From Gammaproteobacteria bacterium (GTDB lineage: Bacteria > Pseudomonadota > Gammaproteobacteria > Pseudomonadales > Azotimanducaceae), in assembly GCA_026708185.1 (NCBI GenBank), contig JAPOVK010000003.1:10799-74798 (forward strand): a stretch of 64,000 nt of DNA. The letters are read 5' to 3'. Positions within the stretch are counted from its first letter, which is position 1. Each line of letters opens with the position of its first letter. This document shows positions 9,850 to 60,413 of the stretch, one piece after another. Made by a program: the position numbers and the translations under genes. Under the pieces are notes generated by a model. That model was not told the DNA's origin, ran no database searches, and saw only the letters and a list, made by a program, of their open reading frames with translations.

Positions 9850-11004
9850 ATGCTGCTTCGATCTCTCGCTGCACTCGTAGTCGCCGCCCTCGCGGCAACC
9901 CCTGCCACCGCCGACGACGTCGCGCTGCCGAGCGGCGACACGTCGTCGCTGTTCTGGACACAGGAAGAACGCATTGTCGGCTTTCGTAACTTCGACACCA
10001 TCTACCAGACCCGACCGGTCGACAACGGCAGCGAAGCCCTGGCCTTGGTAGACGACCCGCAGGACTTCTCGGACGTGAGCTACGAGGTCGAAGGCGCGAG
10101 CCACACGCTCGACGACTACCTCGAGGCATTCTACGTCGCGGGCATCCTGGTGGCGAAGGGCGAGCGTATCCTGCTCGAGCGCTACCGCCTCGGTCACAGC
10201 GAGACTTCCCCTTGGGTGTCCTATTCCATCGCCAAGTCGGTCACGTCGCTCCTGGTCGGCGCGGCGATCAGGGACGGCTACATCAAGAGCTTGGACGAGC
10301 CGGTCACCGACTACCTGCCGCGACTCAAAGGCGGGCCGTACGAGGGCACGACGATCCGCAACCTCCTGCACATGGCCTCCGGGGTCGCCTGGAACGAGAG
10401 CTATACGGACCCGGACTCCGATGTCGCGCGCGCCGGCGGCGCCAACGGCATCGCGCTCTTCGACTACCTAGGCGATCTCCAGGTGGCGAACGAACCGGGC
10501 TCACTCTTCAACTACAACACCGGGGAAACCAACCTTGTCGGCGCCTTGTTGCGCGCCGCGATCGGCAACAACGCCTCGAGCTACCTTGCGGCCAAGGTCT
10601 GGCGACCCTTCATGGAACATCCGGCGAGCTGGAGCATCAGTTCGGGCGTGGAACTCGGGGGCTGCTGCATCCATGCGACCCTGCGCGACTACGCGCGGCT
10701 CGGACGTTTCGCACTGCGCGGCGGCGTTCTGCCCGAGGGCACACCGGTCCTGCCCGACGGTTGGATGCTCGAGTCCACGACCGGCTCCGCCGGAAACCCC
10801 GGCTACGGGTACCTGTGGTGGCTTTGGAACGACGGGGCCTACGCCGCGATCGGCATTTTCGGACAATTGATCTGGATCGACCCGCGGCAGGACGTGGTCA
10901 TCGTGACTCAGAGCGCCGCACCTGAGGCCACGAGTGGCGTCCAGTCGACGCATCGTGGTGCGCTGATCGACGCCTTGTACCGGCGCGCCACGGCTCTGCC
11001 CTGA
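9850..11004 (+). CDS. Beta-lactamase-related serine hydrolase (class C/esterase-like), secreted
   Basis: Signal peptide MLLRSLAALVVAALAATPATA and an SxxK motif (YSIAKSVTS). Length 384 aa. Confidence 0.8.
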   Translation: MLLRSLAALVVAALAATPATADDVALPSGDTSSLFWTQEERIVGFRNFDTIYQTRPVDNGSEALALVDDPQDFSDVSYEVEGASHTLDDYLEAFYVAGILVAKGERILLERYRLGHSETSPWVSYSIAKSVTSLLVGAAIRDGYIKSLDEPVTDYLPRLKGGPYEGTTIRNLLHMASGVAWNESYTDPDSDVARAGGANGIALFDYLGDLQVANEPGSLFNYNTGETNLVGALLRAAIGNNASSYLAAKVWRPFMEHPASWSISSGVELGGCCIHATLRDYARLGRFALRGGVLPEGTPVLPDGWMLESTTGSAGNPGYGYLWWLWNDGAYAAIGIFGQLIWIDPRQDVVIVTQSAAPEATSGVQSTHRGALIDALYRRATALP

Positions 11005-11010
11005 TCGGGC

Positions 11011-11934
11011 TTAGGACGCGGCCAGAACCGCCTTCGGCACAGGGAGTACTTGAGACTGGTACGGATTGCCGAACCCGGCCAGTTCCTTGAACAGGTCCGG
11101 ATCGCTGCAGTCATCCGCTAGAGCGCGCGGAAAGTGGTTCGGGATGTCGTCTTGCGGCTGGATGGACGCGTGGCGGAAGTAGTTGACGATCGTCACCCGC
11201 AAGCCCGGCGTGGTTCGTGGATACGCGCCGTGCCAGAGTTGACCGTGGAAGGCGATCAGCGAACCGCGGGGACACTCGACGGGTATCGCCTCCTTGACAG
11301 CTCCCGGCATGGTCGGCGGCCGCGAGCGCAGGTGCGATCCGGGTACGCACGCAAAGGCCCCGTCTGCGTGGGTGTACTCGGTCAGGCACCAAGTGCAGTT
11401 GGCGTTCAGGGCGACGCGTCCCCACGGCAGCGGCACACCCATCTGGTCGCAGTGCAGGCCGAGTGACTCTCCGTAGCCGTCACCCGCCCACTTGACGAAG
11501 CAGTTGTGCGAACTGAACCGGGCTTCCGGGCCAATCATGTGGCGCGTGAGCGCCGTCGCGACCGGGTTCACGGCGAGGTCGCGGAAGGCCCGGTCGAACG
11601 TGCAAAGCTGCATGAGCTGAAACTGGCTGGGCTTCACTTGCGAGAACAACTCGAGCGTGCCGCGGTAGTCGCCGTAGTCGAGCTCGCACTCCGGGCCGTC
11701 GGCGACTGTGAACCGGCAACCGACAAGCTCTTCGGACTTGTCGAGCAGCAACTGGGTCAGGCGGTCGATCTCGGCATCGGTCACACCGGTGACTTCCGGC
11801 GGTACGACCGCATAGCCGTGCAATTCGATATCGAGGACGTAGGGCTCGAGTCCCAAGTCGGCAATCGCCTGCGATACGTCCGGCTGCTTGGGTCGCTTCG
11901 CCACGGTCTTCCCCTCCCTTAAAGAAGCTGGCAT
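11011..11934 (-). CDS. Phytanoyl-CoA dioxygenase (PhyH) family Fe(II)/2-oxoglutarate oxygenase
   Basis: Only the C-terminal 307 aa of track ORF 11011..12993 look genuine (MPASLREGKTVAKRP...). LHCDQ ... GSLIAFHGQLWHGA fits the HxD...H facial triad. The upstream part is antisense to metY. Confidence 0.72.
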   Translation of the reverse strand: MPASLREGKTVAKRPKQPDVSQAIADLGLEPYVLDIELHGYAVVPPEVTGVTDAEIDRLTQLLLDKSEELVGCRFTVADGPECELDYGDYRGTLELFSQVKPSQFQLMQLCTFDRAFRDLAVNPVATALTRHMIGPEARFSSHNCFVKWAGDGYGESLGLHCDQMGVPLPWGRVALNANCTWCLTEYTHADGAFACVPGSHLRSRPPTMPGAVKEAIPVECPRGSLIAFHGQLWHGAYPRTTPGLRVTIVNYFRHASIQPQDDIPNHFPRALADDCSDPDLFKELAGFGNPYQSQVLPVPKAVLAAS

Positions 11935-11988
11935 CGAGTTTACCCCGCGAACTGCGCGTACGCGGCAGGTCGTTGTAGCATCACCGCC

Positions 11989-13299
11989 ATGGCAGACCCA
12001 GAACATCGCGGCCCGCGGCCCACCGGGTTCGACACGCTCACCCTGCACGCCGGGCAGCGGCCCGATGCCGCCACGGGCGCACGAGCGACCCCCATCTACC
12101 AGTCCGCTTCCTTCGTCTTCCCCGACACCGACTTCGCGGTGGGCCTGTTCAACATCGAGCGCGCGGGCCACGTCTATTCCCGCCTCTCCAATCCCACCAA
12201 CGCCGTCCTCGAGGAGCGGATCAGCGCCCTGGAAGGCGGTGTCGGCGCGATCGCCACCGCCAGCGGCCAGGCGGCGATGCATCTCGCGGTCGCCACCCTG
12301 GCGAGCGCCGGTGATCATATCGTTGCTTCGCGGTCGCTCTACGGCGGCACACACAATCTCCTCGAATACACGCTGCCCCGTTTCGGTATCGAAACCACGT
12401 TCGTTGATCCGCGCTCGCCGGACGCCTTCGCTGCCGCGATACGCGACAACACCAAGCTGCTGTTCGGCGAGATTCTCGGCAACCCGGGCCTCGAAGTACT
12501 CGACATTCCGCGCGTCGCTGAGGTGGCCCACGCCGCAGGCTTGCCCCTCATGGTCGATGCGACCTTCGCGACGCCCTGGTTGTGCAAACCACTCGATTTT
12601 GGCACCGACATCGTGGTCCATTCGGCGACCAAGTTCTTGAGCGGCCACGGCATCGTGATCGGCGGGTTGCTCGTCGACGGCGGCACGTTCGATTGGGAGG
12701 CAAGCGGGCGTTTTCCAACCCTGACCGAGCCCTACGACGGCTTCCACGACCTCGTCTTCGCCGAGGAGTTCGGTCCACAGGCGTTCATCACCCGCGCCCG
12801 CAAGGAGGGCATGCGCGACTTCGGCGCATGCATGGCACCGACGACGGCCTTCCACATCCTGCAAGGTCTCGAGACGTTGCCCTTGCGCATGGCGAAGCAC
12901 GTGGAGAATACGCGCCAGGTCGTCGCCTTCCTCGACGCGCACGACGCGGTGGCATCCGTGAGCTACCCCGAGCTTGCCAAGCATCCCGATCACGAACTTG
13001 CGGGCAAGCTACTACCCAACGGCGCCGGCGCCGTGTTCAGTTTCGAACTCCAGGGAGGGCGCGAGGCCGGGCGCGTGTTCATCGAGAGCCTGTCGCTGTT
13101 CTCGCACCTCGCCAACGTCGGGGATGCCAAATCGCTGGTGATCCACCCGGCCAGCACGACCCATCACCGCATGGACGCCAAGGCGCTCGCCGCCGCCGGC
13201 ATCGGCGAAGGCCTAGTCCGGCTCTCCATCGGCCTAGAGGATCCGCGCGACCTGATCGACGACTTGGGCCGGGCGCTGCGCCGGGCATCACGCGCATGA
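11989..13299 (+). CDS. metY: O-acetylhomoserine sulfhydrylase (PLP-dependent)
   Basis: [10 protein letters not shown]..., [16 protein letters not shown]..., PLP-lysine motif [11 protein letters not shown]. 436 aa. Confidence 0.92.
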
Positions 13300-14099
13300 G
13301 CGGCACCCGCATCGAGGTCGCGGGGGCGACCGTCTATGTCGGCACCGGGTCCGGCAAGCCCGCATCCGATGCGGCATGCGTCGCCTTCGTGCACGGTGCC
13401 GGCATGGACCACACCGTCTGGGCACTGCCGACGCGGCACTTCGCTCGCAAAGGCCTACGCGTCCTAGCTCCCGACCTGCCTGGTCACGGCCGCAGCAACG
13501 GCACGGCCCGGTCGTCAATCCCCGCCATGGCCGACTGGCTCGCGGGCGTGTTCGATGCGACCGGCGTCGATCAAGCCGCAGTCGTCGGGCACAGCATGGG
13601 GTCGCTCGTGGCCTGGCAGTTCGCACAGAGCCATCCGGATCGCTGCCGCACATTGGCATTGCTCGGAACGTCGATGCCGATGCCCGTCACCGACATGCTG
13701 CTGAACGCCGCCAAGGACAACCACCACGCGGCGATCGACATGGCCAATGCCTGGAGCCACAGCCCGGGCGGCTCGCTGGGCGCCAACGACAACCCGGGCG
13801 TCTGGATGCTCGGGGCGGGGGAACGGCTGCTGGAGCGGTCGGGTCCCGGCGTCTTCCATGCCGACCTCGCCGCCTGCAACGCCTTCAACGCCGACGAGGC
13901 AGACGGGGTCGTGAATTGCCCGGCCCTGGTCATCGCCGGTGACGAAGACCGCATGACGCCGGCCCGAGCCGGTCTCGACGTCGCGTCGCACTTGGCCGGC
14001 GCCAAGGTCGTGCGGCTAGCCGGCTGCGGTCATGCGATGCTGAACGAGCGCCCGAACGAGATCCTCGACGCGTTGATCGATATCGTGACCGAGCGCTGA
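13296..14099 (+). CDS. Alpha/beta-fold hydrolase
   Basis: [10 protein letters not shown]...FVHGAGMDHTVW...APDLPGHGRS...VGHSMGS (nucleophile elbow). Its ATG overlaps the metY TGA (ATGA). Confidence 0.8.
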   Translation: MSGTRIEVAGATVYVGTGSGKPASDAACVAFVHGAGMDHTVWALPTRHFARKGLRVLAPDLPGHGRSNGTARSSIPAMADWLAGVFDATGVDQAAVVGHSMGSLVAWQFAQSHPDRCRTLALLGTSMPMPVTDMLLNAAKDNHHAAIDMANAWSHSPGGSLGANDNPGVWMLGAGERLLERSGPGVFHADLAACNAFNADEADGVVNCPALVIAGDEDRMTPARAGLDVASHLAGAKVVRLAGCGHAMLNERPNEILDALIDIVTER

Positions 14100-14286
14100 C
14101 CTGAGACGCCGCGCACCTTGCGCGGTGCGGCAGGATCGCGCCACATCTTCATCCCAAGCCACCATGGTCGCGATCCTTTTCCCGGCCGCGGGACGCCCAA
14201 TCCCAGCCGCAGGTTCCCTATGCGGGGCCGCCGACCTCGCTTGCCCCTCCGTACGGCGGAGTGCATCTCGCAGCGCGCAGAACGGT

Positions 14287-15228
14287 TCACTTGATCGTGG
14301 AGCGCAAGATGCCGTCTCCACTAACCGCCGGTGGTGACGGATTCGCCGCTGGCAACAGAATTTCGGCGTCGAAGTCTGCCGAGGGCAATGGGGTGAGCGT
14401 CAGCAGTGGCCCGTCACCTAAGGTCTCTGGCAGCGCGTGGGCACCGCAATTCGCCGGAAGTGCTCCCTCGCGGGACAGGCGACAAGTCCAAGCAGCTCCG
14501 CGTCGAAACCGAATGTGGACGCTGAAAACGTCATCCGCTGGCAACCAATCGACCATGGTTCGCCTGCGTCCCTCGGGAGAGCGTCTGGCGTGGAAGCCGC
14601 CGGTCAACATCAGAGCATAGTCGAAATCTCCCGCACCCCACTTTCTGGCAACGTTCGTCGCCATCAGTTCCTCGCGCGTGTTCGCCGGCTCCTCTTCCCC
14701 CTCGAACCACAGGGACGCGTCGTCGAAAGCGACGGTCTCCACCTCGAGCCCAGACCGGACCAACTCGCGAACTCGGGTCAGCAGACCAAGCATTGCCCGG
14801 CTGCTCCGCCCGTCGCGGGTCTCCTGCCACCACTGCTGTTCTGAGCCGGCGAGCGGACTCCCGTCGGCGCGCATGACCGGGCGTTCTGCAGTCGTAAGGG
14901 TGGCCACATCGAGCTCGCCCGCGACGAAGGCCGCGATGTCCTCGTCGAGCCAGCGGGGCAGTTCGATGCCCACGAGCACACGCCCGTCCACGGCGAGGTG
15001 GCAAGCGAGGTCCCCAACGAGCGCCGGTGACTCCTGCGTGCCGTGCGTCTCTCCGAAGACCACCACCCGGCCCCGCTGCCGCCGCAGCGAGTCGGCTGTG
15101 GGAAGAACGGCCTCCACGCATTCAAGGTCCTTGCCAGCTGCAGTCCCCGTCGGTGTCAAGAGACAGGCCGCGGCCAACAGTACCCCTGTCCCCTTCGACA
15201 CCGCCGCGCCCAGTTTCGCCTTTGTCAT
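14287..15228 (-). CDS. Secreted hypothetical protein (possible ChaN/erythromycin-esterase/Tiki-like fold)
   Basis: I chose the start at MTKAKLGAAVSKGTGVLLAAACLL (signal). VVVFGETHGTQESP resembles the GExH motif of that superfamily, but the match is weak. Confidence 0.4.
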   Translation of the reverse strand: MTKAKLGAAVSKGTGVLLAAACLLTPTGTAAGKDLECVEAVLPTADSLRRQRGRVVVFGETHGTQESPALVGDLACHLAVDGRVLVGIELPRWLDEDIAAFVAGELDVATLTTAERPVMRADGSPLAGSEQQWWQETRDGRSSRAMLGLLTRVRELVRSGLEVETVAFDDASLWFEGEEEPANTREELMATNVARKWGAGDFDYALMLTGGFHARRSPEGRRRTMVDWLPADDVFSVHIRFRRGAAWTCRLSREGALPANCGAHALPETLGDGPLLTLTPLPSADFDAEILLPAANPSPPAVSGDGILRSTIK

Positions 15229-15296
15229 CCAACCCCCGTGGCCGCCCCCTTTCCTGCCTGACGCCAACGCACACTGGCGAGAGGCAGTGCCTGGTG

Positions 15297-16283
15297 TCAA
15301 TCGCGATCTCGGGTTCGTTCGCCCTTTTCCGGTTGAACACTCCGGTAGGTCTGCGCGGCCCTCTCGAACGCCTTGCTACCCAACGACCGGGCGAGGTCCG
15401 CGCAGGCGAAGGCCAGCTTGGCGTCGTGTTCGTCGTCGATGGTCGCAGGTCGCGGTTCGGCCGCGGGGTCGAACCGCGGAGTGCCGACAGTGACGTATGC
15501 GGCCAGCAGTCCGGCGCTCAGCAGTCCGTCCGCCTCCATGCCGATCGCGTCGACGCACACGCCGAGCGCATGGGTGCCGGTCACCATGTGCAATGCAAAG
15601 AAGTCCTGCGTGTCGTTGAAGACTGCCAGACTCAGTTCCGCGAGACGTCGGCGGTTGTCCGGGCCGACGACGACGCGTCCCGTCAAGACGCCCGAAGCAA
15701 CCGTTGCGTTGTAGCGCCGCTCGAACGGTTCATCCAAAGGCGGGGCCGGAGGCGCCGACAGCGGCTCGTCGCCGTAACGCGCCCCGTCGGCCAAGGCCTG
15801 CAATGCCTGATCCGTGCCCGCGCTCGCAAGGTAGGCGAGCCCGGCGACGATTTCGGACGCGACGTCGAATCGAATGCCGTATGCGAGTCGAATGACCGGA
15901 TGGAAGGCGAAGCGGACCCAGCCGCTGAGGAGCCCGGGAAGCCAGTTCTCCAAGGTCGCCCGAGTCCCCACGCGCGCGACTTCCCGGTCGAAGTAAGCCA
16001 ACAGCGAGCCGTAAGCTCCGACGTCTCCCACCGCGCGTGCGATCTGCGTCGGCGGGTGCCGGAAATGCTGGACCGGCGGGTCGAGACGCTGCCGGTATCG
16101 CGTCGCGTACGACTCCAGCGCGTCCTGGCCAGCACCGTTCGCCCACATCGCCAAGAGGGCCATCGGCAGATGGTCCGACAGGTGTCCGCCGTAGTGAGGC
16201 CCGTGCTGGTTGCGGTGGGCGAGGAGCTTCTCGGAGAGCCACTCCGGCACGCGTTGACGGTCGCGCTGTTCGGTGTGCGCCAT
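15297..16283 (-). CDS. Questin-oxidase-like (DUF4243) family protein
   Basis: The N-terminal ...GGHLSDHLPMALLAMWANGA... is the pattern I associate with DUF4243. 328 aa. Confidence 0.5.
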   Translation of the reverse strand: MAHTEQRDRQRVPEWLSEKLLAHRNQHGPHYGGHLSDHLPMALLAMWANGAGQDALESYATRYRQRLDPPVQHFRHPPTQIARAVGDVGAYGSLLAYFDREVARVGTRATLENWLPGLLSGWVRFAFHPVIRLAYGIRFDVASEIVAGLAYLASAGTDQALQALADGARYGDEPLSAPPAPPLDEPFERRYNATVASGVLTGRVVVGPDNRRRLAELSLAVFNDTQDFFALHMVTGTHALGVCVDAIGMEADGLLSAGLLAAYVTVGTPRFDPAAEPRPATIDDEHDAKLAFACADLARSLGSKAFERAAQTYRSVQPEKGERTRDRD

Positions 16284-49477: not shown

Positions 49478-51673
49478 GTGAAACCGCTCGCTGCCGCGCC
49501 GCTTGCCCTCCTGGTTCTCGCCGCTTGCGGACAGGAACGTGGATCCGACGCCACCGCCCCGGACCGCGCCGTCGAGATTCGCGCCGCCACCGACACCGTC
49601 GACGGCGAGCGCATCGGCGCGGCCAACGAACCGCAAAACTGGCTCTCCCACGGCCGCACCTACGACGAGCAGCGGCACAGCCCGCTCACCGCCGTCGACG
49701 CCGAGAACGTGGGCGAACTCGGACTCGCCTGGTACTGGGACACCGGCGACGTGCGTGGCCTCGAAGCCACACCCATCGTCGTCGACGGCGTGCTCTTCAC
49801 AACCGGTACTTGGAGCCGCGTCTACGCCAACGACGGGCGCACCGGCGAACTCATCTGGCAGTACGACCCGCAGGTGCCGCGCGAATGGGGCAAGTACGCG
49901 TGCTGCGACGTGGTCAACCGCGGCGTTGCCGTGTGGAAGGGGCGGGTATTCGTCGGCACGCTGGACGGTCGGCTGATCGCGTTGGACGCCGGGACAGGCG
50001 AGGTGACCTGGGAGACGCTGACCATCGACCAGGAGCGGCCGTACACGATCACCGGTGCACCCCGGGTGGTGAAAGACATGGTGGTGATCGGCAACGGCGG
50101 TGCCGAGTACGGCGTGCGCGGCTACGTCACCGCCTACGACTGGGAAACGGGTGTCGAGCGGTGGCGGTTCTACACCGTGCCAGGCGACCCCTCCGCCCCG
50201 TTCGAAAGTCCCGCGATGGAGATGGCTGCCGAGACATGGGTCGGCGGCAACTGGTGGGAAGTCGGTGGCGGCGGCACGGTATGGGATTCCATGGCCTTCG
50301 ATCCCGAACTCGACCTCCTCTACGTCGGCGTCGGCAACGGCTCGCCGTGGAACCGCGAAATCCGCAGCCCCGGCGGCGGCGACAACCTCTTCCTCGCCTC
50401 CATCGTCGCGCTCGATCCGGACGACGGAGCGCTGGCCTGGCACTACCAGACCACGCCGGGTGAGACGTGGGACTACACGGCGACGCAGCACATGATCCTC
50501 GCCGACCTCGAGATCGGAGGCAGCCTGCGCAAGGTGATCATGCAGGCGCCGAAGAACGGGTTCTTCTACGTACTCGACCGGACCGACGGCACGTTCATCT
50601 CGGCCAAGCCCTACGTCGCCGTGAACTGGGCAAGCGGCATCGATCAGCAAACCGGCCGGCCGGTCGAGGAACCGGGCGCACGCTACATCGACGACGCCGC
50701 GTTCGTGTTTCCCTCCGCACACGGTGGCCACAATTGGCATCCGATGGCGTACAACCCGGACACGGAATTCGTCTACGTCCCTGCTCTGGACATGGGATTC
50801 CCCTACGGGCAACACGGCGATTTCGTCTACCAGCCGGGCGAAATGAACCCGGGCATCGACATCGGCGCGTTGCTCCCGCCCAAGACGCCCGATGAACGCG
50901 TCGCGATGCTGCAGTCCATGAAGGGCCACCTGGCGGCCTGGGATCCGGTCAACCAACGGGAGGCGTGGCGCGTGCAGCACGCGACGACCTGGAACGGCGG
51001 CGTGTTGTCGACCGCTGGCAATCTCGTCTTCCAGGGCCGTTCCGACGGCGTCTTCGCGGCCTACGCCGCAGACACGGGAGATCTCAAGTGGGAGATGCCC
51101 GTGCACACCGGGATCGTGGCGGCACCGGTGAGCTACGCCATCGACGGCGAGCAGTACATCGCGGTGGCGGCGAGTTGGGGCGGGTCGTTCACACTCTTCT
51201 CCGGCGTGCCGCGACACCGCGGCAACATCCTCAGCCAGGGCCGCATCCTGGCCTTCAAGCTGGGTGGCGAAGCCGAGCTCCCGGAACCCGCGATCACGTA
51301 CGTCAACATCCCGGAGCCGCCGGCCATCGAGGCCACCGCCGAGGAGATCGACCGCGGCGAACTGCTCTACCACACCTGGTGCACGCCATGCCACGGCGCC
51401 GGCGTCACCTCCGGCAGTTCGGTGCCGGACCTCAAGTACCTGCCGGCGGCGTCCCACTCCCGGTGGGACCTCATCGTGCGCCAAGGCGTCTACGCCACGG
51501 TGGGCATGCCGGGTTTCGACCACGTGCTCAGCGAATCGGATTCCGAAGCGGTCCACGCCTACGTCGTCAACGAGGCGAAGGCGGCGATCGCGTTCTGCGA
51601 GTCGGAATACCCCCAACGCTATCCCGAACTGTTCGCCACGGCGTGCACGAAGGCCATCGTCGTCAGCTATTGA
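49478..51673 (+). CDS. PQQ-dependent alcohol dehydrogenase with C-terminal cytochrome c domain (quinohaemoprotein type), lipoprotein-type signal
   Basis: Signal/lipobox LALLVLAACG, propeller W-motif repeats, the vicinal Cys pair YACCDVVNRG typical of quino-ADH, and CTPCHG (CxxCH) near the C-terminus. Confidence 0.9.
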   Translation: MKPLAAAPLALLVLAACGQERGSDATAPDRAVEIRAATDTVDGERIGAANEPQNWLSHGRTYDEQRHSPLTAVDAENVGELGLAWYWDTGDVRGLEATPIVVDGVLFTTGTWSRVYANDGRTGELIWQYDPQVPREWGKYACCDVVNRGVAVWKGRVFVGTLDGRLIALDAGTGEVTWETLTIDQERPYTITGAPRVVKDMVVIGNGGAEYGVRGYVTAYDWETGVERWRFYTVPGDPSAPFESPAMEMAAETWVGGNWWEVGGGGTVWDSMAFDPELDLLYVGVGNGSPWNREIRSPGGGDNLFLASIVALDPDDGALAWHYQTTPGETWDYTATQHMILADLEIGGSLRKVIMQAPKNGFFYVLDRTDGTFISAKPYVAVNWASGIDQQTGRPVEEPGARYIDDAAFVFPSAHGGHNWHPMAYNPDTEFVYVPALDMGFPYGQHGDFVYQPGEMNPGIDIGALLPPKTPDERVAMLQSMKGHLAAWDPVNQREAWRVQHATTWNGGVLSTAGNLVFQGRSDGVFAAYAADTGDLKWEMPVHTGIVAAPVSYAIDGEQYIAVAASWGGSFTLFSGVPRHRGNILSQGRILAFKLGGEAELPEPAITYVNIPEPPAIEATAEEIDRGELLYHTWCTPCHGAGVTSGSSVPDLKYLPAASHSRWDLIVRQGVYATVGMPGFDHVLSESDSEAVHAYVVNEAKAAIAFCESEYPQRYPELFATACTKAIVVSY

Positions 51674-51773: not shown

Positions 51774-52586
51774 TTGTTGGGTGCTGGCCGAACTGGAACT
51801 CTGGGCGTAATCCGTCGGCTTGATCGGCGCTCTGCCGGACCCTTTGGAACAAGCGGTCACGTAGCTATCGCTGCCGGGGTGGTGTTCGCCGGAGTCCCAC
51901 TACTGTCTGGCCATGCCTTCGCCTGCGTTCTGGTAGGTGCGGTCCTTTGTGGATTCCCGGAAGCAGTTGGGCGATGCGGAGTCTCGCACGTCGGCATGAC
52001 CGCGCCACTTTTTCCCCGCAATCGCGCTCTTTGGTTGAAGTGTGTTACCGCATACACGATTGCAGGATGCGCGACTTCATACGGATTGGGGTTGGTTCTC
52101 GTGTCTGTCGGATCGGCGGTGGGGGAAGCCGGCGCTCACGTCCTCATTGGGACGTCAGGCCTTGCGGCGCTTGCCATGATGCTCCGGGCGATGCAGCTCG
52201 TGCGATTCGAAGTCCCGCAGTGCGACCGGCAGACACATAAGAGGTGGCTTGGCCAGTTCAGCATGCCCACGGCGGTTGGGATGTGGGGAGCGCACATCGG
52301 GCTCGCTGTGACTACGGTGATCGCATACGGCGGCCTGTATCCAGTGTTGTTGCTGGCTGCAGGACTCTCGAACGGTCACGGGGAGTGGCTGCCTGTGGTG
52401 TTCTGGCTTGGCCGAACAGCCGCCATGTGGTTGGCGCCAGTCGTGGTAGGGAGCACTAACGGGTCGGACTACGTCGACGCGCTCATGGAGTCCCGACCGA
52501 CATTCCGCCACGTCGCAGCCATCGGACTCGCGATGCTCGCATCCGGTGCAGGAGTATATGTTGTGTCCTACCTCACTCAGACATGA
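51774..52586 (+). CDS. Polytopic (about 6-7 TM) membrane protein, unassigned family; first gene of the lower-GC operon
   Basis: This is the downstream part of track ORF 51264..52586. TTG 51774 lies 8 nt after GGAGG (51761-51765). Several intramembrane Cys (FACVLVGAVLCGF, TIAGCATSY) and a loop VPQCDRQTHKRW. The start is uncertain. Confidence 0.45.
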   Translation: MLGAGRTGTLGVIRRLDRRSAGPFGTSGHVAIAAGVVFAGVPLLSGHAFACVLVGAVLCGFPEAVGRCGVSHVGMTAPLFPRNRALWLKCVTAYTIAGCATSYGLGLVLVSVGSAVGEAGAHVLIGTSGLAALAMMLRAMQLVRFEVPQCDRQTHKRWLGQFSMPTAVGMWGAHIGLAVTTVIAYGGLYPVLLLAAGLSNGHGEWLPVVFWLGRTAAMWLAPVVVGSTNGSDYVDALMESRPTFRHVAAIGLAMLASGAGVYVVSYLTQT

Positions 52587-52592
52587 GAGCGC

Positions 52593-53162
52593 ATGAGCGT
52601 GGATGTCCTGACAGTTCATCTGGCTCTATGGGCGGTCGTCGCTGTACAAGGGCTGACTATCGCCTTCCTCTTCTACCGTTACTCGCAGCTGCACGCCCTT
52701 GCTACCCAGCCAAGCGTCGGACAAGGCCGGCGGTCACCCGGGGCGGAGATCCCGAGCTTCGAGGCGACGAACGGGGCCACCGGAGAGATCGTGTCGAGCA
52801 ACGACCTGATCGGAGCTAGGCATTTCATCTTGGCCGTGGAGGCTGATTGTGCCGACTGTCGCGAGTTGATCCGCCAGATCGCTGAGGGCGAGGCAGATCG
52901 TGCGCGGTTCCCGCATATGCTCGTGTATTGTCAAGGATCGCCAAGAGGCTGCGCCCGAGTAAAGGATCGCTTAGAGCCGGACAGTTCACCGTTTTGGGTG
53001 CAACGCGAGCAGGATGTCGCCGAGCTGCTCGGCATCCAGGCCTTTCCTGCCTTGGTCGAGGTCGATCCGGCCATGCATCTGGTTGGCTACTCGTATCCGA
53101 CAACCAGAAGACACCTCAACTCGATCATGGGGTCCGTCTCGGAAGCAAGGAGCACCGAGTGA
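52593..53162 (+). CDS. Membrane-anchored thioredoxin-fold (TlpA/ResA/MauD-like) protein with CxxC
   Basis: N-terminal TM LALWAVVAVQGLTIAFLFY, then IPSFEATNGATGEIVSSNDLIGARHFILAVEADCADCRELI (CADC at the canonical position) and FPALVEV (cis-Pro region). Confidence 0.68.
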   Translation: MSVDVLTVHLALWAVVAVQGLTIAFLFYRYSQLHALATQPSVGQGRRSPGAEIPSFEATNGATGEIVSSNDLIGARHFILAVEADCADCRELIRQIAEGEADRARFPHMLVYCQGSPRGCARVKDRLEPDSSPFWVQREQDVAELLGIQAFPALVEVDPAMHLVGYSYPTTRRHLNSIMGSVSEARSTE

Positions 53163-53773
53163 AGTGGTACGTTGCCTGTATCGCCATCGCGGCGGCTGTT
53201 TACTTGGTCCATCGGGCAATGGTCGAGACAATCCGCACCATGAGACGGCTTTCACGGATGCTCCCAGATCCGGGACTTCAGTCGAAGCCAGCCACCAGCG
53301 AACTCAGCGTTGGTTTGGGGATGATGATTCCTGAGTTCGAAGCGACGGAGGTCGTCACAGGCCGCACCTTCGGCACCGCGTCGATTGTTGGGAAGTCCGT
53401 GACATTGGCATTCATCCGTGTATCACAACTGACGGAGCTGAGCAGGCATGTCTTGGGTCGTTTTCTGGATCAATGCTGGCTACGGTCGGACGACAAAGTG
53501 TACGTCTTTCTTGTCGATGCCGTTGACGACGACGTAGACGATGGAGCAACGGAAGTATCTAGACACCTGCGCCTAGATGAGCTGGAGAACCGCGATGACA
53601 TCGTACTCGCGAGAAGCCGAGAGGTGAGCCTTTCCACGGAGCTGAACGTACACCAGACTCCGTGGGCCTTACATGTCGACAAAGGCGGGATCGTGGATCA
53701 GGTAGGCACATTACTCCAAGGGGAAGCGACATCTCGTGAGCCCAGAGCGAATCCGAATGGTCGCTTGGGCTGA
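53159..53773 (+). CDS. Membrane-anchored thioredoxin-fold paralog lacking the CxxC (SQLT instead)
   Basis: GTG 53159 overlaps the upstream TGA (GTGA), with AAGGAG 6 nt upstream. TM WYVACIAIAAAVYLV. IPEFEATEVVTGRTFGTASIVGKSVTLAFIRVSQLTELSRHV aligns with the preceding gene. Confidence 0.55.
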   Translation: MKWYVACIAIAAAVYLVHRAMVETIRTMRRLSRMLPDPGLQSKPATSELSVGLGMMIPEFEATEVVTGRTFGTASIVGKSVTLAFIRVSQLTELSRHVLGRFLDQCWLRSDDKVYVFLVDAVDDDVDDGATEVSRHLRLDELENRDDIVLARSREVSLSTELNVHQTPWALHVDKGGIVDQVGTLLQGEATSREPRANPNGRLG

Positions 53774-54272
53774 TTTGGCTGCGCTCGCCCAACTGGCGAC
53801 GGGGCTGTGCTTTGTCGTAGCAGCCGTCGCGAAGGCACGCGATATGTCTACCTTTCAGGACCAACTCGCGGAGATGGCTACTGCTCTACCGGTTCCAGCC
53901 TTGCTAGCGGTTCTGGTCGTCGCCGTCGAGGTGGTTTTGGGGCTCTGCTTCGTTACCGGGCTCGCAATCTTGGTCGCCGCGCCAGTGGCACTTCTCGTGG
54001 TGGTCGTGTTCGGAACAGGCAGCGTTGTACTGGCTAACAGGTCGCCAAATCGACGACAGTGTCTGTGTTTCGGGATAAACGGCGTCGACACGGCTTCGGC
54101 GGCCGGCGTGGTACGGCTGGGTCTGTTGGCGGGCGGGATAATGGCGACCGCCTTGATCTCTCCCATCGACGGATTTCGGATTCCAGGCCTTGCCGAGTTG
54201 GTGTCAGCCGCCGTAGTCGTTCTGTTGGGTGCATCCGTGCTTCAGTTCGTTGACTTGGCGGTTTATCGGTAG
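53736..54272 (+). CDS. MauE/DoxX-family redox-associated membrane protein
   Basis: Four hydrophobic segments and the CLCFG motif (RRQCLCFGINGV) that I associate with MauE-family proteins. Alternative start at ATG 53757. Confidence 0.62.
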   Translation: MSPERIRMVAWADLAALAQLATGLCFVVAAVAKARDMSTFQDQLAEMATALPVPALLAVLVVAVEVVLGLCFVTGLAILVAAPVALLVVVVFGTGSVVLANRSPNRRQCLCFGINGVDTASAAGVVRLGLLAGGIMATALISPIDGFRIPGLAELVSAAVVVLLGASVLQFVDLAVYR

Positions 54273-54324
54273 AGCGAGGACGGCGAAGAAGATCGGATAG
54301 GCTCAATGCAGGGAGAGTACAGTG

Positions 54325-54690
54325 ATGGAAGGTTCCGGCAGGCGCGGTTTCCTGCGTCGTAGTTTTTTGGTCGTTGGCGCGTTTGTCGCCGGAGTGCTCG
54401 GTGTGGAACCGGCCCACGCCAACAGGCATACCCGGTGCTGCGACCTTTGTCGAACGCCCGCCCAATGCCCGTTTCCATTCGCGGACTGGAAGGACGAGTG
54501 TGAGAGCTGCCTAGTCTGGACGTGTTCTTGGCCCCGGGGCGGGGGCGGTGAAGGATACCAAGTGACATATGCATGCTTCGAGTGCTATTCCACCGTCGAG
54601 TCCGGCAACTGCCGGGACGACGTCGGGTGTGACAATGCCCTTTGCTCGCGTTACCAGCTCTTGAGCGGTCCTTATCCGAGTCCATGTTGA
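54325..54690 (+). CDS. Tat-signal, cysteine-rich small secreted protein (13 Cys in ~89 mature residues)
   Basis: GGGAGAG lies 7 nt upstream of ATG 54325. MEGSGRRGFLRRSFLVVGAFVAGVLGVEPAHA has a twin-arginine motif (RRxFL) and an AHA cleavage site. The mature part is NRHTRCCDLCRTPAQCPFPFADWKDECESCLVWTCSWPRGGGGEGYQVTYACFECYSTVESGNCRDDVGCDNALCSRYQLLSGPYPSPC. Confidence 0.65.
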   Translation: MEGSGRRGFLRRSFLVVGAFVAGVLGVEPAHANRHTRCCDLCRTPAQCPFPFADWKDECESCLVWTCSWPRGGGGEGYQVTYACFECYSTVESGNCRDDVGCDNALCSRYQLLSGPYPSPC

Positions 54691-57284
54691 CCTTGTCGGC
54701 TACACCAATGCGAGCCGCGACGATGTTATTGGTCGCAATTGTCGGCACGCAAGTGTTGGCTGATCGTGTGGTCGAGGTCCAACTCTCAGGCTCCGACGCG
54801 CAGCACGGCACTTGGGTTGGCGTCTTAAGCGAGCCGACTCGATCAAGCGCCGTGGCGCTTAGTTGGGCGCACACGGAAGCGGACACGCTCAGCGTGGATG
54901 TGCCAGACACGGGCGCTGCCAGGATTGTGGCCGTTCGACATGGCATTGTGTCGACGCGACGCATCGCCACGGACGAGCGTGGACCGGTGTACCTGCGGTT
55001 CGAGCGTGGCTTCTCCGTCACCGGCACTGTACGCGACATCCACGGACTCGCCATCGCTCAAGCCAACGTTGTCCTCTCGGCGACTGGAAGGACTGAGTTC
55101 GACCTGCCAAGGTTCGTGTGGCCTCAATGGCTGACAGATAAGGATGGAGTCTTCAAAGCAATTGGCTTGGCCGCCGGTCGATACACGGCTCTGGCGAACG
55201 CGGAAGGTCACGTTATGCTCGACGACATCGAGCTTGAGATCCCTGAAGCAGCCGACCGCGTCGAGATAACGATGGCGCCAGCCTTCCACGTTGAGGGCGG
55301 TGTGGTCGGTGCGATCGACTACCAACCGGTGGTCGGAGCCGAGGTGGAGGCACATGCCAGCGGCCCCGTTCGGATTGTTGAAACAGACTCACATGGTCGA
55401 TTCCGGGTTGGGCCTTTCGCCGTCGGGCAGGAGGTCCGTGTAGCTGCGCACAGTAACGATGGCCGGTCCAGCGACACCGTGCACCTGTCCAAGCCCCAGG
55501 AAAGGCTTGTTCTGAGGCTTAACGAAGGCGTGAGGGTCACGGGTGCCGTCGCTGACGGGACGAACAATAAGGTCGTGACCGGATTCGTACTCACCGCCTA
55601 TGCCAACGGCGATGTGCTCGGGTCGTTTCCTTTCCGTGACACCGGAGGCAAGCTCGACGCCGTGGTGGACTGGCGAACTGATACTCTGGCGGTAGAGGTG
55701 CCAGGCTACTCAGCATGGAGTGCCCGCGCCCAGTTCACTGCGGGCGAGCACTTCGATCTAGGACGGATCCTGGTCGAACCACACCGGCCGGTGTCCGGAC
55801 TCGTCATCGACGGCTCGACGGGAACGCCCATCGCCGGTGCGACGGTCACGCGTCACGGTGTTTACCTTTCGTACACGCAGCGCCTTGGCGGAGAAACCAC
55901 GATCACGGATGGCGCCGGCACCTTCCAGCTCTCCAACGCGAGTAGCGACGGGTACTCTCTGAGTGTTTCCGTAGATGGGTACGCGCATAAGACCATCGAT
56001 TTCCGGGGAACCGCCGACCACGTCACGATCGAACTGGAGAGGGGTGGAACGGTAATCGGGACGTTGAGCACGACCGATGGGACTCCAATAGGGGGAATCC
56101 TGACACTCAGCCCAAGTGGTGAGACGCGACTCCAAGGCATTCGGGAGCGTGCCGCGAGCGATGGTCGTTTCGAGTTCACGAACGTCCGAGCGGGCGTCTA
56201 CCGGCTGTTCGCGCGATCAACAGGCAGTGTGCCGCGCAACCGCTTGGTCACTGTCACCGACGGGCGCCCGACACGGGTCAATGTGGCGCTAGATGCAGGT
56301 CTGCGGATGACCGGAGAACTGAGCGGACTGAGCGACGGTGAGCGCGCTAGGTTTCTGTTTTCGCGCGGCGGTGAGCACGTGCATGTCGTATCAGGGCGTC
56401 ACGGCAATGGACGGTTCGTCGTGGAAGGCGTTCCAAGCGGTCCGTTGCAGGTAACCGCGGCGACATCTATAGGACGGAAGATGACCAAGGTGGTCGATGA
56501 CGAAACCGGTTACGCGGGTGTGGACTTTGCGTTCGGCGGCGGATCCGTTTTGAGGGGTGTCGTCCGTGCGGGCGACACGCCAATGTCCGCAATCGCGGTG
56601 ACGGTCGTGCGGCAGGAAGGCGAAGCTTTTTCGAGTTCGACCAACACGGACAGGGCCGGGTTTTACGAACTGCGCGGGTTGCCGGCGGGCGATTACGTTC
56701 TGACGGTGCAGCAACGGTCGGCCACGTTCCATGACAGGTTCGACGTGGCGGTCGCCGGGGACACGGTATTCGACGTGCCGCTAACGCCGTTGACCATCAG
56801 CGGCGTCGTGCGGTCATTCCGAAGCGTGTACGACGGACGTATCAGGGCTACGAAACTGACTGAGGCAGGCATGATGTCCATCGTGTCGCGAATCAAGAGC
56901 GGCGGGTCATATCGTTTCGACGGCTTGGCGGCAGGCCGGTGGCGCATCACGGTGCTGGAGCCTTTCGCCGATGGCATCACACAGTCTGTCGATCTCCAGG
57001 GTGTCGTGTCCGAATTTGACTTCACCTTGACGCCGAGCGGGACGCAGGCCATTTGGATTGCACCGGACCTCGCAGGCGATCGACCGCCCATGTTGGAGGT
57101 GGTTGTTGAGAGCGGGGATCTGGCGGGGGAGGTCATCGCCTACAGTCTCGACAATGGGGCAAATAGGCAACTGCCTTTAAGCTTGGTGGGGCAGCGACTT
57201 CGATTTGAGGCGGGTGGCTACCTTCCCCAGACTGTCGAGAGTTGGGGTGGTGGAACTTTGGAGATCGAGCTTCGACAGCGTTGA
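54684..57284 (+). CDS. Secreted protein built from multiple carboxypeptidase-regulatory-like (CarboxypepD_reg) beta-sandwich repeats
   Basis: Signal MRAATMLLVAIVGTQVLA. Recurrent (V/I)xGxVxDxxGxPIxGAxV...DGxFxxxxLxxGxYxL units, for example VSGLVIDGSTGTPIAGATVT, VIGTLSTTDGTPIGG and LRGVVRAGDTPMSAIAVTV...AGFYELRGLPAGDYVL. ATG 54684 overlaps the upstream stop (ATGTTGA). Confidence 0.62.
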   Translation: MLTLSATPMRAATMLLVAIVGTQVLADRVVEVQLSGSDAQHGTWVGVLSEPTRSSAVALSWAHTEADTLSVDVPDTGAARIVAVRHGIVSTRRIATDERGPVYLRFERGFSVTGTVRDIHGLAIAQANVVLSATGRTEFDLPRFVWPQWLTDKDGVFKAIGLAAGRYTALANAEGHVMLDDIELEIPEAADRVEITMAPAFHVEGGVVGAIDYQPVVGAEVEAHASGPVRIVETDSHGRFRVGPFAVGQEVRVAAHSNDGRSSDTVHLSKPQERLVLRLNEGVRVTGAVADGTNNKVVTGFVLTAYANGDVLGSFPFRDTGGKLDAVVDWRTDTLAVEVPGYSAWSARAQFTAGEHFDLGRILVEPHRPVSGLVIDGSTGTPIAGATVTRHGVYLSYTQRLGGETTITDGAGTFQLSNASSDGYSLSVSVDGYAHKTIDFRGTADHVTIELERGGTVIGTLSTTDGTPIGGILTLSPSGETRLQGIRERAASDGRFEFTNVRAGVYRLFARSTGSVPRNRLVTVTDGRPTRVNVALDAGLRMTGELSGLSDGERARFLFSRGGEHVHVVSGRHGNGRFVVEGVPSGPLQVTAATSIGRKMTKVVDDETGYAGVDFAFGGGSVLRGVVRAGDTPMSAIAVTVVRQEGEAFSSSTNTDRAGFYELRGLPAGDYVLTVQQRSATFHDRFDVAVAGDTVFDVPLTPLTISGVVRSFRSVYDGRIRATKLTEAGMMSIVSRIKSGGSYRFDGLAAGRWRITVLEPFADGITQSVDLQGVVSEFDFTLTPSGTQAIWIAPDLAGDRPPMLEVVVESGDLAGEVIAYSLDNGANRQLPLSLVGQRLRFEAGGYLPQTVESWGGGTLEIELRQR

Positions 57285-59765: not shown

Positions 59766-60413
59766 TCAGTTCTCGTCGACCTGTCTGTGCTCACATACGT
59801 ACGCGAACGTCGCCTCGGCAATACGCGCACAGGCCGACTTCACCGCAGCCCAGTCGTGCCACTCCGGTGCGAGGTGCCGGTACTCCGAAAGCTCGGTGCT
59901 GTCGAGATCGTAGGGCAGCGGAGTCGCCAACTGGGCCTGTAGCTGTTGCAGGGCCGATTCGCCGCTCTCCTGCGGGTAGAACTCGTCAAAGGGCACCAGC
60001 GCCTGTCCGGTCGCCTCTTCGCCAAGGAGGTGGGCCAGCGCGACAAAGTCCAGATAGTCCCGAGTTGCGTTGCGGCGGAGTATCAACACGGCCTTGATGC
60101 GCAGGATCTCGGCCTTGGTCGGAATGGTCAGCGGCACGCCTCGATGGTCAAGCGTCGTCGTCTCGAGCGGCCGGTCGCGGATCAGTTGCCGGACCCCGGT
60201 TTCGATGCCGTCCAGGCTGCCGAGGATAAGCACCGGTTTGCGCACTCGGGCCGTTCGCCAGCCTGCCACGTCCTCGAGCTGCTGAAGCACCGCTTCGAAC
60301 CGGTCGCGGAGATCCGTCAGGACGTGATCCGCGTCGCGCGAGAGGCGATGCTCGGCATGTATTGCCGCAGCCGTCCCGCCGAGGCGCACCGCGTCGGGCA
60401 GAACCCGCTGCAA
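59766..60413 (-). CDS. AbiEii/AbiGii-like nucleotidyltransferase toxin family protein (type IV TA)
   Basis: The N-terminal VRLGGTAAAIHAEHRLSRDADHVL resembles the GGTAL...R.S.DLD nucleotidyltransferase motif of PF08843 proteins. At 215 aa it is short for the family. Confidence 0.5.
   Translation of the reverse strand: MQRVLPDAVRLGGTAAAIHAEHRLSRDADHVLTDLRDRFEAVLQQLEDVAGWRTARVRKPVLILGSLDGIETGVRQLIRDRPLETTTLDHRGVPLTIPTKAEILRIKAVLILRRNATRDYLDFVALAHLLGEEATGQALVPFDEFYPQESGESALQQLQAQLATPLPYDLDSTELSEYRHLAPEWHDWAAVKSACARIAEATFAYVCEHRQVDEN

Follow-up and report, generated by a model that had tools for sequence, protein, structure and literature searches.

A rare, conserved six-gene cassette that joins MauF-, MauD- and MauE-like genes to a predicted Tat-exported cysteine-rich protein and a cysteine-free giant

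Our study describes a cassette of six genes at positions 51774-57284 of a stretch of 64,000 nucleotides (nt) from a Gammaproteobacteria bacterium of the Azotimanducaceae (GenBank assembly GCA_026708185.1, contig JAPOVK010000003.1, positions 10,799 to 74,798 of the forward strand), and we refer to this whole stretch as the window. We consider it reasonably probable that the six genes encode a MauE-to-MauD-type oxidative-folding relay for a disulfide-rich protein exported by twin-arginine translocation (Tat), which would pair with a giant protein encoded beside it. The homologies described below suggest that the cassette goes back to the accessory set (MauF, MauD and MauE) found in methylamine dehydrogenase (MADH) clusters and became attached to a different client. 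A Mau-type accessory module with a new Cys-rich client had already been proposed from the letters of the window alone (hereafter the sequence-only reading); the homologies to MauF, MauD and MauE and the absence of MauA, MauB and MauG bear this out, and by analogy with MADH the small protein is the putative client of the redox module. The members of the cassette are the following (aa, amino acids; TM, transmembrane; the basis of each assignment is given in brackets; AF2, AlphaFold2):

51774..52586, + strand: gene 1, putative remote MauF homologue, polytopic membrane protein, 270 aa (hhalign, AF2)
52593..53162, + strand: gene 2, MauD-like thioredoxin fold with an N-terminal TM anchor, 189 aa (hhalign)
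53159..53773, + strand: gene 3, CxxC-less, TM-anchored paralogue of gene 2, 204 aa (hhalign)
53736..54272, + strand: gene 4, MauE membrane protein, 178 aa, or 171 aa from 53757 (Pfam PF07291)
54325..54690, + strand: gene 5, Cys-rich small protein with a predicted Tat signal, 121 aa (family alignment)
54684..57284, + strand: gene 6, Cys-free giant, predicted to be secreted, 858-866 aa (Pfam PF13620)

An open reading frame (ORF) check of the window found all six genes on the + strand at these coordinates, as the sequence-only reading had placed them. That reading had given the junctions as 7, -4, -38, 52 and -7 nt; the last four are correct, and the spacer between genes 1 and 2 is 6 nt (52587-52592) instead of 7. 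The two overlaps that it named are present, GTGA between genes 2 and 3 at 53159-53162, with AAGGAG upstream, and ATGTTGA between genes 5 and 6 at 54684-54690, while genes 4 and 5 are separated by a 52-nt spacer. Genes 3 and 4 overlap by 38 nt with a gene 4 start at GTG 53736 and by 17 nt with one at ATG 53757, the start favoured by gene callers. For gene 6, ATG 54708 is the probable start, with a signal for the secretory (Sec) pathway ending in VLA before D (54753-54764); this start gives the giant a cleaner signal, MRAATMLLVAIVGTQVLA followed by D, and gene callers take 54723. The sequence-only reading was also right about composition, with a guanine-plus-cytosine (GC) content of 0.58-0.62 over 52-57.5 kb compared with 0.65-0.70 in the flanks on both sides. 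Its descriptions of the products likewise agree with what we found for each of them: a polytopic membrane protein with intramembrane Cys, a TM-anchored thioredoxin fold with CADC, a CxxC-less paralogue of it, a MauE-like membrane protein with CLCFG, a 121-aa protein with 13 Cys and a twin-arginine signal, and a giant secreted-type protein made of CarboxypepD_reg-like repeats. In NCBIfam none of the six products matched a family above its cut-off. A promoter and terminator scan of the cassette returned no promoters and fewer terminators than shuffled sequence, and it therefore says nothing on operon structure.

The assignment of the accessory genes was made by comparison with the mau cluster of Paracoccus denitrificans PD1222 (mauF-B-E-D-A-amicyanin-J-G). 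Gene 4 matches Pfam PF07291 (MauE) at E 1e-12, with 48.6 bits against a cut-off of 27, and aligns with P. denitrificans MauE by hhalign with a probability of 95.7% (E 9e-9), its CLC falling on CGC. It has been reported that MauE proteins can replace DsbB in Escherichia coli, with the CXC as their active site and a conserved F-G behind it, and that near the predicted quinone site there are a Lys in TM1 and a Glu in TM2 (bioRxiv 10.64898/2026.03.05.709764). All these sequence features are present in gene 4: CLCFG (54060-54074, residues 109-113) lies in the TM3-TM4 loop, K33 of TM1 (53829-53840) and E65 of TM2 (53922-53936) occupy the aligned MauE positions, and C-x-C-[FY]-G is invariant across the orthologues. 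The system described in that preprint nevertheless differs from ours, as it is a generalist working with DsbA-type partners, whereas our gene 4 sits in a rare cassette of six genes, which also supplies a MauD-like partner of its own and a putative dedicated client. A tblastn search of plasmids with the window MauE gave no match. As a side observation, a database protein of 231 aa (P0025) has a MauE-like segment at its N-terminus followed by a small-protein domain, with "PRMFL" as its RR motif; it may be a genuine fusion, or an artefact of gene calling or of a frameshift where the MauE and small-protein genes meet.

The family of gene 2 aligns with MauD over its full length (residues 1-182 with 1-181, probability 97.4%, E 1e-11), and the alignment takes in the TM anchor and places CADC on CPVC. 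Gene 2 encodes CADC at 52848-52859 and, further along, the FPAL cis-Pro loop at 53043-53054; the CxxC and a "PAL.E.D" motif are invariant in 12 orthologues. A tblastn search with MauD also matches orthologues directly. Its thioredoxin matches in Pfam are all sub-threshold, and a search of PDB sequences gave no meaningful match. Gene 3 is a paralogue of gene 2 (family against family 97%, E 1e-10) that lacks the CxxC in all 10 orthologues and keeps the thioredoxin-type cis-Pro TP loop (53657-53665). Its alignment with MauD is weaker and partial (59%, E 9e-5), and it had no Pfam or usable NCBIfam match.

Gene 1 appears to be a remote homologue of MauF, of a DsbD/CcdA-like superfamily. Its family (A3) aligns with P. 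denitrificans MauF over 165 columns with a probability of 92.7% (E 4e-7), and the GRCGxSH, PQ and GR motifs align between the two. The family motifs are LCGxxExxGRCGxSHxG (51945-51995), PQC (52215-52223) and MWGAHIG (52281-52301). Two Cys, one Glu and two His are conserved in the membrane helices of this family and are lacking in MauF; the near-invariant Cys59 and Cys68 are both in the first half of the protein, and the equivalent in the second half has His (MWGAHIG). DsbD/CcdA transporters have two essential Cys, one per half of the membrane domain, canonically in TM1 and TM4. The window protein matched no Pfam family and no usable NCBIfam family, and MauF itself has no Pfam family; distant orthologues of gene 1 reached 22.9 and 24.8 bits on Pfam DsbD_2, against a cut-off of 24.9, and there was one weak DsbD_TM match. 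A profile search of PDB sequences gave no meaningful match. The AF2 model is all-helical (pLDDT, the predicted local distance difference test, of 88) and had no Foldseek match in the PDB below E 0.2, so that a CcdA-like fold is neither confirmed nor excluded. In public data the gene is represented by a hypothetical NCBI protein from a Gammaproteobacteria metagenome-assembled genome (MAG) (P0003), which is 99% identical but only 155 aa long and covers 57% of gene 1. This annotation is probably truncated; it drops the N-terminal half with the near-invariant Cys59, Glu63, Cys68 and His72.

Gene 5 encodes the sole Cys-rich product of the cassette, with 13 Cys compared with none in the giant. Its predicted twin-arginine signal (54325-54420) has the sequence features of a Tat signal, with GRRGFLRR, a hydrophobic stretch and a cleavage site between AHA and N; the RRGFL motif is encoded at 54340-54354. 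An RRxFL-type motif was found in 33 of the 35 family members scanned, and the two exceptions seem to result from errors in the start codon or the gene call, while the TIGR01409 hidden Markov model (HMM) stays below its cut-off on gene 5 (11.4 against 16.7). The mature protein of about 88 aa contains the 13 Cys, of which 12 are kept in two close homologues, and a single His. Those two homologues were the only close ones among 5.8e9 proteins, and the whole family is rare, with 18 matches among 1.84e9 representative proteins in an exhaustive HMMER search. The family diverges fast, with identities of 29-49% beyond the two closest homologues and 8-19 Cys in mature parts of about 75-155 residues. 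Its fixed positions are the twin arginine, six Cys, including those of C-x-E-C-[Y/F] (C-x-E-C-Y at 54574-54588 in the window), Trp65 and a C-S pair, and the F-L after RR is nearly invariant. A profile search gave no Pfam, usable NCBIfam or PDB sequence match. The AF2 model, built from an alignment of 18 sequences, has a pLDDT of 69 (86-88 in the core blocks) and a three-stranded sheet with a short helix; Foldseek found nothing in the PDB below E 0.4.

Gene 6 is composed of about eight CarboxypepD_reg/transthyretin-like beta-sandwich domains, and Pfam PF13620 (CarboxypepD_reg) matches it in six stretches at E 1e-43; a search of PDB sequences gave no meaningful match. All the giants carry a Sec-type signal. 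The window giant has no Cys, and its orthologues have 0-3, mostly in the signal peptide; having no Cys, the giant cannot itself be a disulfide client. Among 15 giants only periodic G, F and P residues are conserved. Because there is no conserved constellation with a catalytic look, the complex that the giant would form most likely has a structural, binding or scaffold role.

Conservation supports treating these genes as a unit. A family-HMM census found the six families together in more than 20 independent loci, belonging to marine and sponge Gammaproteobacteria MAGs and to soil metagenomes. The loci were obtained from contigs of gene 1 homologues with 34-48% identity, from a scan of GTDB species genomes (nine loci, all from marine or sponge Gammaproteobacteria MAGs, with the host groups Pseudomonadales, Candidatus Azotimanducaceae and the OMG group), from a scan of metagenomes of the Joint Genome Institute (JGI) (twelve loci), and from contigs bearing distant relatives of the small protein. 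Wherever the contig extends far enough, all six families are present, and their co-occurrence is far beyond chance. The order varies: genes 1-2-3-4-small-giant in the window and in loci L011 and L021; 1-2-3-4-giant-small in L004, L007, L009, L010 and L015; small-giant followed at a distance by 1-2-3-4 in L005, L013, L014 and L016; and 2-1-3-4-small-giant in L029 and L034. In some loci (L022-L026) the giant is on the opposite strand. When the search was made with the small protein alone, a MauE gene adjoined it in four of the four new contigs, with gene 1, 2, 3 or the giant where there was room. The small protein lies beside MauE, the giant or both in every locus examined except L012. When the loci collected by then were compared all against all, no gene beyond the six proved to be conserved, be it a modifying enzyme, an exporter or any other. 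The sequence-only reading had suggested looking for MauE, a redoxin, a Tat-signal Cys-rich ORF and a CarboxypepD_reg protein in the same place, and this combination is what these loci contain; it had also made its case depend on gene order being conserved in relatives, and the gene set is kept across many diverged genomes.

In almost all loci the small-protein gene adjoins that of the giant, and the stop codon of one frequently overlaps the start codon of the other; we read this arrangement as a sign that the two are translationally coupled subunits of a single complex. Some loci carry further genes. L007 has three tandem giants (10615-13071, 13714-16161 and 16168 onwards) with near-identical N-termini, the small protein lying between the first and the second, which suggests a recent duplication. 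In a subgroup of sponge MAGs, two tandem paralogues of about 620 aa without a Pfam match stand right after MauE (L005 6562-8409 and 8475-10340; also L013 and L016), and they may be lineage-specific additions to the cassette. L005 also encodes, just upstream of the Tat small protein, a second, unrelated Cys-rich protein of 114 aa with a Sec-type signal and no Pfam match (499-843). Mobile genes were found within a few kb in L014 (3480-4175, IS3-type transposase with HTH_21 and rve), L004 (15523-16671, phage-type integrase) and L031 (3201-4205, DDE_3 transposase). Because transposase or integrase genes lie near different copies and the window shows a GC dip, the data suggest that the cassette is horizontally mobile.

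The likeness to the mau cluster is one of machinery: MauF corresponds to gene 1, MauD to gene 2 (and gene 3) and MauE to gene 4, with the CxxC and CXC motifs aligned. It extends to the general features of the client, as MauA has 12 Cys and a twin-arginine leader and the small protein has 12 conserved Cys and a twin-arginine leader, and in both systems the small-protein gene stands beside that of a larger, Cys-poor partner. There are also differences. Neither the sequence nor the predicted fold of the small protein is related to that of MauA (the hhalign comparison of its family, A4, with MauA gave a probability of 4% and aligned only the signal region), its partner has about eight beta-sandwich domains in place of the MauB propeller, and the cassette has an extra CxxC-less MauD paralogue. 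At E 1e-2, tblastn found no match to MauA, MauB, MauC, MauG or MauJ in the 64-kb window or in any of the related loci. Because MauA, MauB, MauG, MauJ and amicyanin are absent from all of them, the cassette is not a mau cluster, and a genuine mau cluster was ruled out. The sequence-only reading had reached the same view from the lack of a MauB-like propeller, a MauG di-haem peroxidase and a radical S-adenosylmethionine (SAM) enzyme, and from a small protein unlike MauA or QhpC; tblastn located neither of the first two, no radical-SAM gene is conserved with the cassette, and the small protein had no PDB match by sequence or fold. A match to a characterised mau or quinohaemoprotein amine dehydrogenase (qhp) cluster, which would have spoken against that view, did not appear in our sequence, fold or tblastn searches. 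A qhp locus was likewise rejected, the small protein having no PDB match and neither the radical-SAM QhpD nor the flavoprotein QhpG being conserved with the cassette.

On these grounds, the relay that we favour would work in five steps. First, the 121-aa small protein would be exported through Tat and its signal cut after AHA, as the conserved RRxFL suggests. Second, gene 4 would act like DsbB, with quinone re-oxidising its periplasmic C-L-C, which in turn would oxidise the CADC of gene 2; the catalytic motifs are seen here, and we infer the activity from experiments on other MauE proteins. Third, the small protein would receive its disulfides, six at most, from gene 2, as the analogy of MauD and the 12-Cys MauA suggests, so that electrons would pass from the thiols of the small protein to the CxxC of gene 2, the CXC of gene 4 and finally quinone. 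Fourth, genes 3 and 1 would serve as accessories, perhaps holding the substrate or forming a reducing or isomerising arm. Fifth, the folded small protein would bind the Cys-free giant, and the two would make up a defined complex on the cell surface or within the envelope, as suggested by genes that are near-invariably adjacent and whose stop and start codons overlap. It has been reported that the maturation of MauA needs MauD and MauE (bioRxiv 10.64898/2026.03.05.709764); with its 12 Cys and twin-arginine leader, MauA is thus a direct functional precedent for the small protein. The proposed relay resembles the DsbB-DsbA and DsbD/CcdA-DsbC relays in having a quinone-linked membrane oxidase and a periplasmic CxxC carrier with a thioredoxin fold, and gene 1 would be a possible second membrane component from the DsbD/CcdA superfamily. 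By sequence, however, the cassette proteins are not members of the DsbA or DsbB families, and gene 1 is only borderline for DsbD_2.

Several considerations weigh against this relay, which is drawn from homologies, motifs and gene linkage. Tat normally carries folded or cofactor-loaded proteins, which is awkward to combine with oxidative folding after export, and Gammaproteobacteria hosts probably own DsbA and DsbB too. The Cys count is odd in 15 of 33 family members (even in 18 of 33), so that not every Cys can sit in an intramolecular disulfide. Glu63, His72 and His174 are invariant in the gene 1 family and absent from MauF, and together with the Cys they would also be compatible with the handling of a metal or a cofactor. 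Finally, L002 (9243-9999, 6804-9176 and 10001-13002) lies on a 5.8-Mb contig of complete-genome size and retains an intact small-giant pair, with genes 1-3 missing and MauE broken; the redox module may be dispensable, or this copy may be decaying. In that locus MauE consists of two out-of-frame pieces fused to unrelated sequence, either in a decaying copy or through a long-read frameshift plus rearrangement. Upstream there is another paralogue of the giant, and the locus is surrounded by FG-GAP/ASPIC and Fic genes.

An unlikely alternative, to which we would nevertheless give some weight, is that the small protein is a Cu, Zn or Fe-S metalloprotein loaded before or after Tat export, with gene 1 moving metal or electrons over the membrane and the thioredoxin-fold proteins keeping the ligand thiols reduced or acting as TlpA/Sco-like metallochaperones. 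The Tat signal of almost every family member would suit it, Tat being the typical route of cofactor-loaded proteins, as would the invariant C-x-E-C, the variable and often odd Cys count, and the invariant Glu, His, His and two helix Cys of the gene 1 family; gene 1 is also borderline for DsbD_2, whose superfamily holds metal transporters as well. Yet gene 4 bears a complete oxidase-type MauE active site, no metal-binding family was matched in Pfam or NCBIfam, and His is scarce, with the one residue in the mature window copy. Two known systems of this kind were considered. Like the HvfX/BufD systems, that is, the bufferin operons built on an MNIO (DUF692) enzyme, the cassette combines a small, Cys-rich protein predicted to be exported with a membrane protein of the DoxX/MauE superfamily, and gene 4 has a weak match to HvfX, of the maturation family for copper-related ribosomally synthesised peptides with post-translational modifications (RiPPs); this match reaches only 21.3 bits against a cut-off of 80, there is no MNIO (DUF692) or DUF2063 gene conserved in the cassette and no DUF2282 match or other precursor family, and a bufferin/MNIO operon was therefore ruled out. 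The copper-storage protein Csp1 shares a Tat signal and 13 Cys with the window small protein, but it is a four-helix bundle whereas our model is beta-rich, and no Csp family was matched in Pfam; a Csp-type copper store was rejected on these points.

We regard it as improbable that gene 5 encodes a toxin, bacteriocin or RiPP-like effector, secreted and disulfide-knotted, for whose maturation the redox module would serve, with the giant as its carrier, receptor-binding partner, immunity or secretion factor. Fast divergence on a fixed Cys scaffold is typical of arms-race peptides, and the context is island-like, with low GC and transposase or integrase genes near some copies. Among the conserved genes, however, an exporter, a protease, an immunity gene and a modifying enzyme are all absent, export by Tat into the periplasm is an unusual route for a toxin, and the mature part of at least about 88 aa folds in the AF2 model as a small protein, not a peptide. 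As regards maturation, this explanation overlaps with the relay. Candidate RiPP clusters of Streptomyces found by decRiPPter also favour it: they have MauE and MauD homologues outside mau clusters, beside precursors with at least 8 Cys, and are experimentally uncharacterised (PMC7794033). They resemble our cassette in placing MauE/MauD next to a Cys-rich small ORF, and they differ in belonging to another phylum and in that no MauF-like gene, Tat signal or beta-sandwich giant was reported for them (PMC7794033).

With a similarly low likelihood, the two proteins could form a new periplasmic enzyme, with the giant as large subunit and the small protein as a catalytic subunit that bears a cofactor or a metal. 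Trp65, C-x-E-C-[Y/F] and the frequently odd Cys count would then be marks of a Cys-derived cross-link or a metal site, and the MauF/D/E-like module would be a portable kit for cross-linked, Cys-rich redox subunits. MADH offers a parallel, as it carries tryptophan tryptophylquinone (TTQ) on its small subunit and its large subunit is cofactor-free.

We consider it very unlikely that genes 1-4 are an envelope-wide disulfide system in which MauE replaces DsbB, the small protein and the giant being mere neighbours. It is true that MauE has been argued to act as a generalist oxidase that is widespread and occurs for the most part outside mau clusters (bioRxiv 10.64898/2026.03.05.709764). The six families nevertheless travel together in four orders, in marine and soil lineages and without any other conserved neighbour, MauE adjoined in all four contigs found from the small protein alone, and the cassette is rare and has a GC content below that of its host, unlike housekeeping genes. 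Least credible of all, and largely refuted, is a diverged but true locus for a quinoprotein amine dehydrogenase, whether MADH or quinohaemoprotein amine dehydrogenase (QHNDH) in type: MauF/D/E-like genes do stand beside a Cys-rich small protein with a twin-arginine leader and an invariant Trp, but that protein has no similarity to MauA and no QhpC-like PDB match by sequence or fold, Pfam Me-amine-dh_L (PF02975) is unmatched, MauB, MauG, amicyanin and MauJ were not found in the 64 kb or the related loci, the genes conserved with the cassette include neither a radical-SAM enzyme nor a flavoprotein, and the giant, an array of beta-sandwich domains, has no conserved catalytic residues.

The surroundings of the cassette in the window, whose sequence is identical to a TARA Oceans scaffold, are those of ordinary metabolism and differ from the flanks at other loci. 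On the upstream side are AceE, a short-chain dehydrogenase/reductase (SDR) and a pyrroloquinoline quinone (PQQ)/cytochrome c quinohaemoprotein dehydrogenase. The last of these is a lipoprotein-type enzyme (49478-51673, same strand; PQQ propeller and C-terminal cytochrome c domain) that ends 100 nt before gene 1. Downstream there is an S9 peptidase, followed by a weak AbiEii-like ORF of 215 aa on the - strand (59766-60413), whose match to the AbiEii type IV toxin nucleotidyltransferase is sub-threshold (E 0.001, 19.5 bits against a cut-off of 22.5). The PQQ dehydrogenase and the S9 peptidase were rejected as members of the cassette, as they are not conserved beside it in other loci.

The cassette is thus real, conserved and uncharacterised, and our results suggest that it reuses the accessory half of the mau cluster for a new client. 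The idea of MauE/MauD working on a Cys-rich precursor has a precedent in Streptomyces (PMC7794033), and this, like the description of MauE as a widespread generalist oxidase (bioRxiv 10.64898/2026.03.05.709764), lowers its conceptual novelty. What is new is that the full MauF, MauD and MauE trio is kept as a unit around an unrelated client, together with an extra CxxC-less MauD paralogue, a Tat-type Cys-rich family without a fold match in the PDB, and a near-constant coupling to a Cys-free multi-beta-sandwich protein. To our knowledge, MauF has no known function, the role of MauD has been deduced indirectly, the DsbB-like oxidase activity of MauE was demonstrated only recently, and MauF, MauD and MauE have been studied only within the methylamine dehydrogenase context. 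The fact that the trio stays together with a different client argues for a portable maturation machine that includes MauF and whose targets would be small, densely Cys-rich proteins with twin-arginine leaders. The cassette would offer a second, simpler six-gene system, free of cofactor enzymes, for studying MauF and the CxxC-less MauD paralogue. It also defines two unannotated families, the small Tat Cys-rich protein and the MauF-like protein with its conserved set of Cys, Glu and His, and ties both to large beta-sandwich proteins, which are common yet functionally opaque in environmental bacteria.

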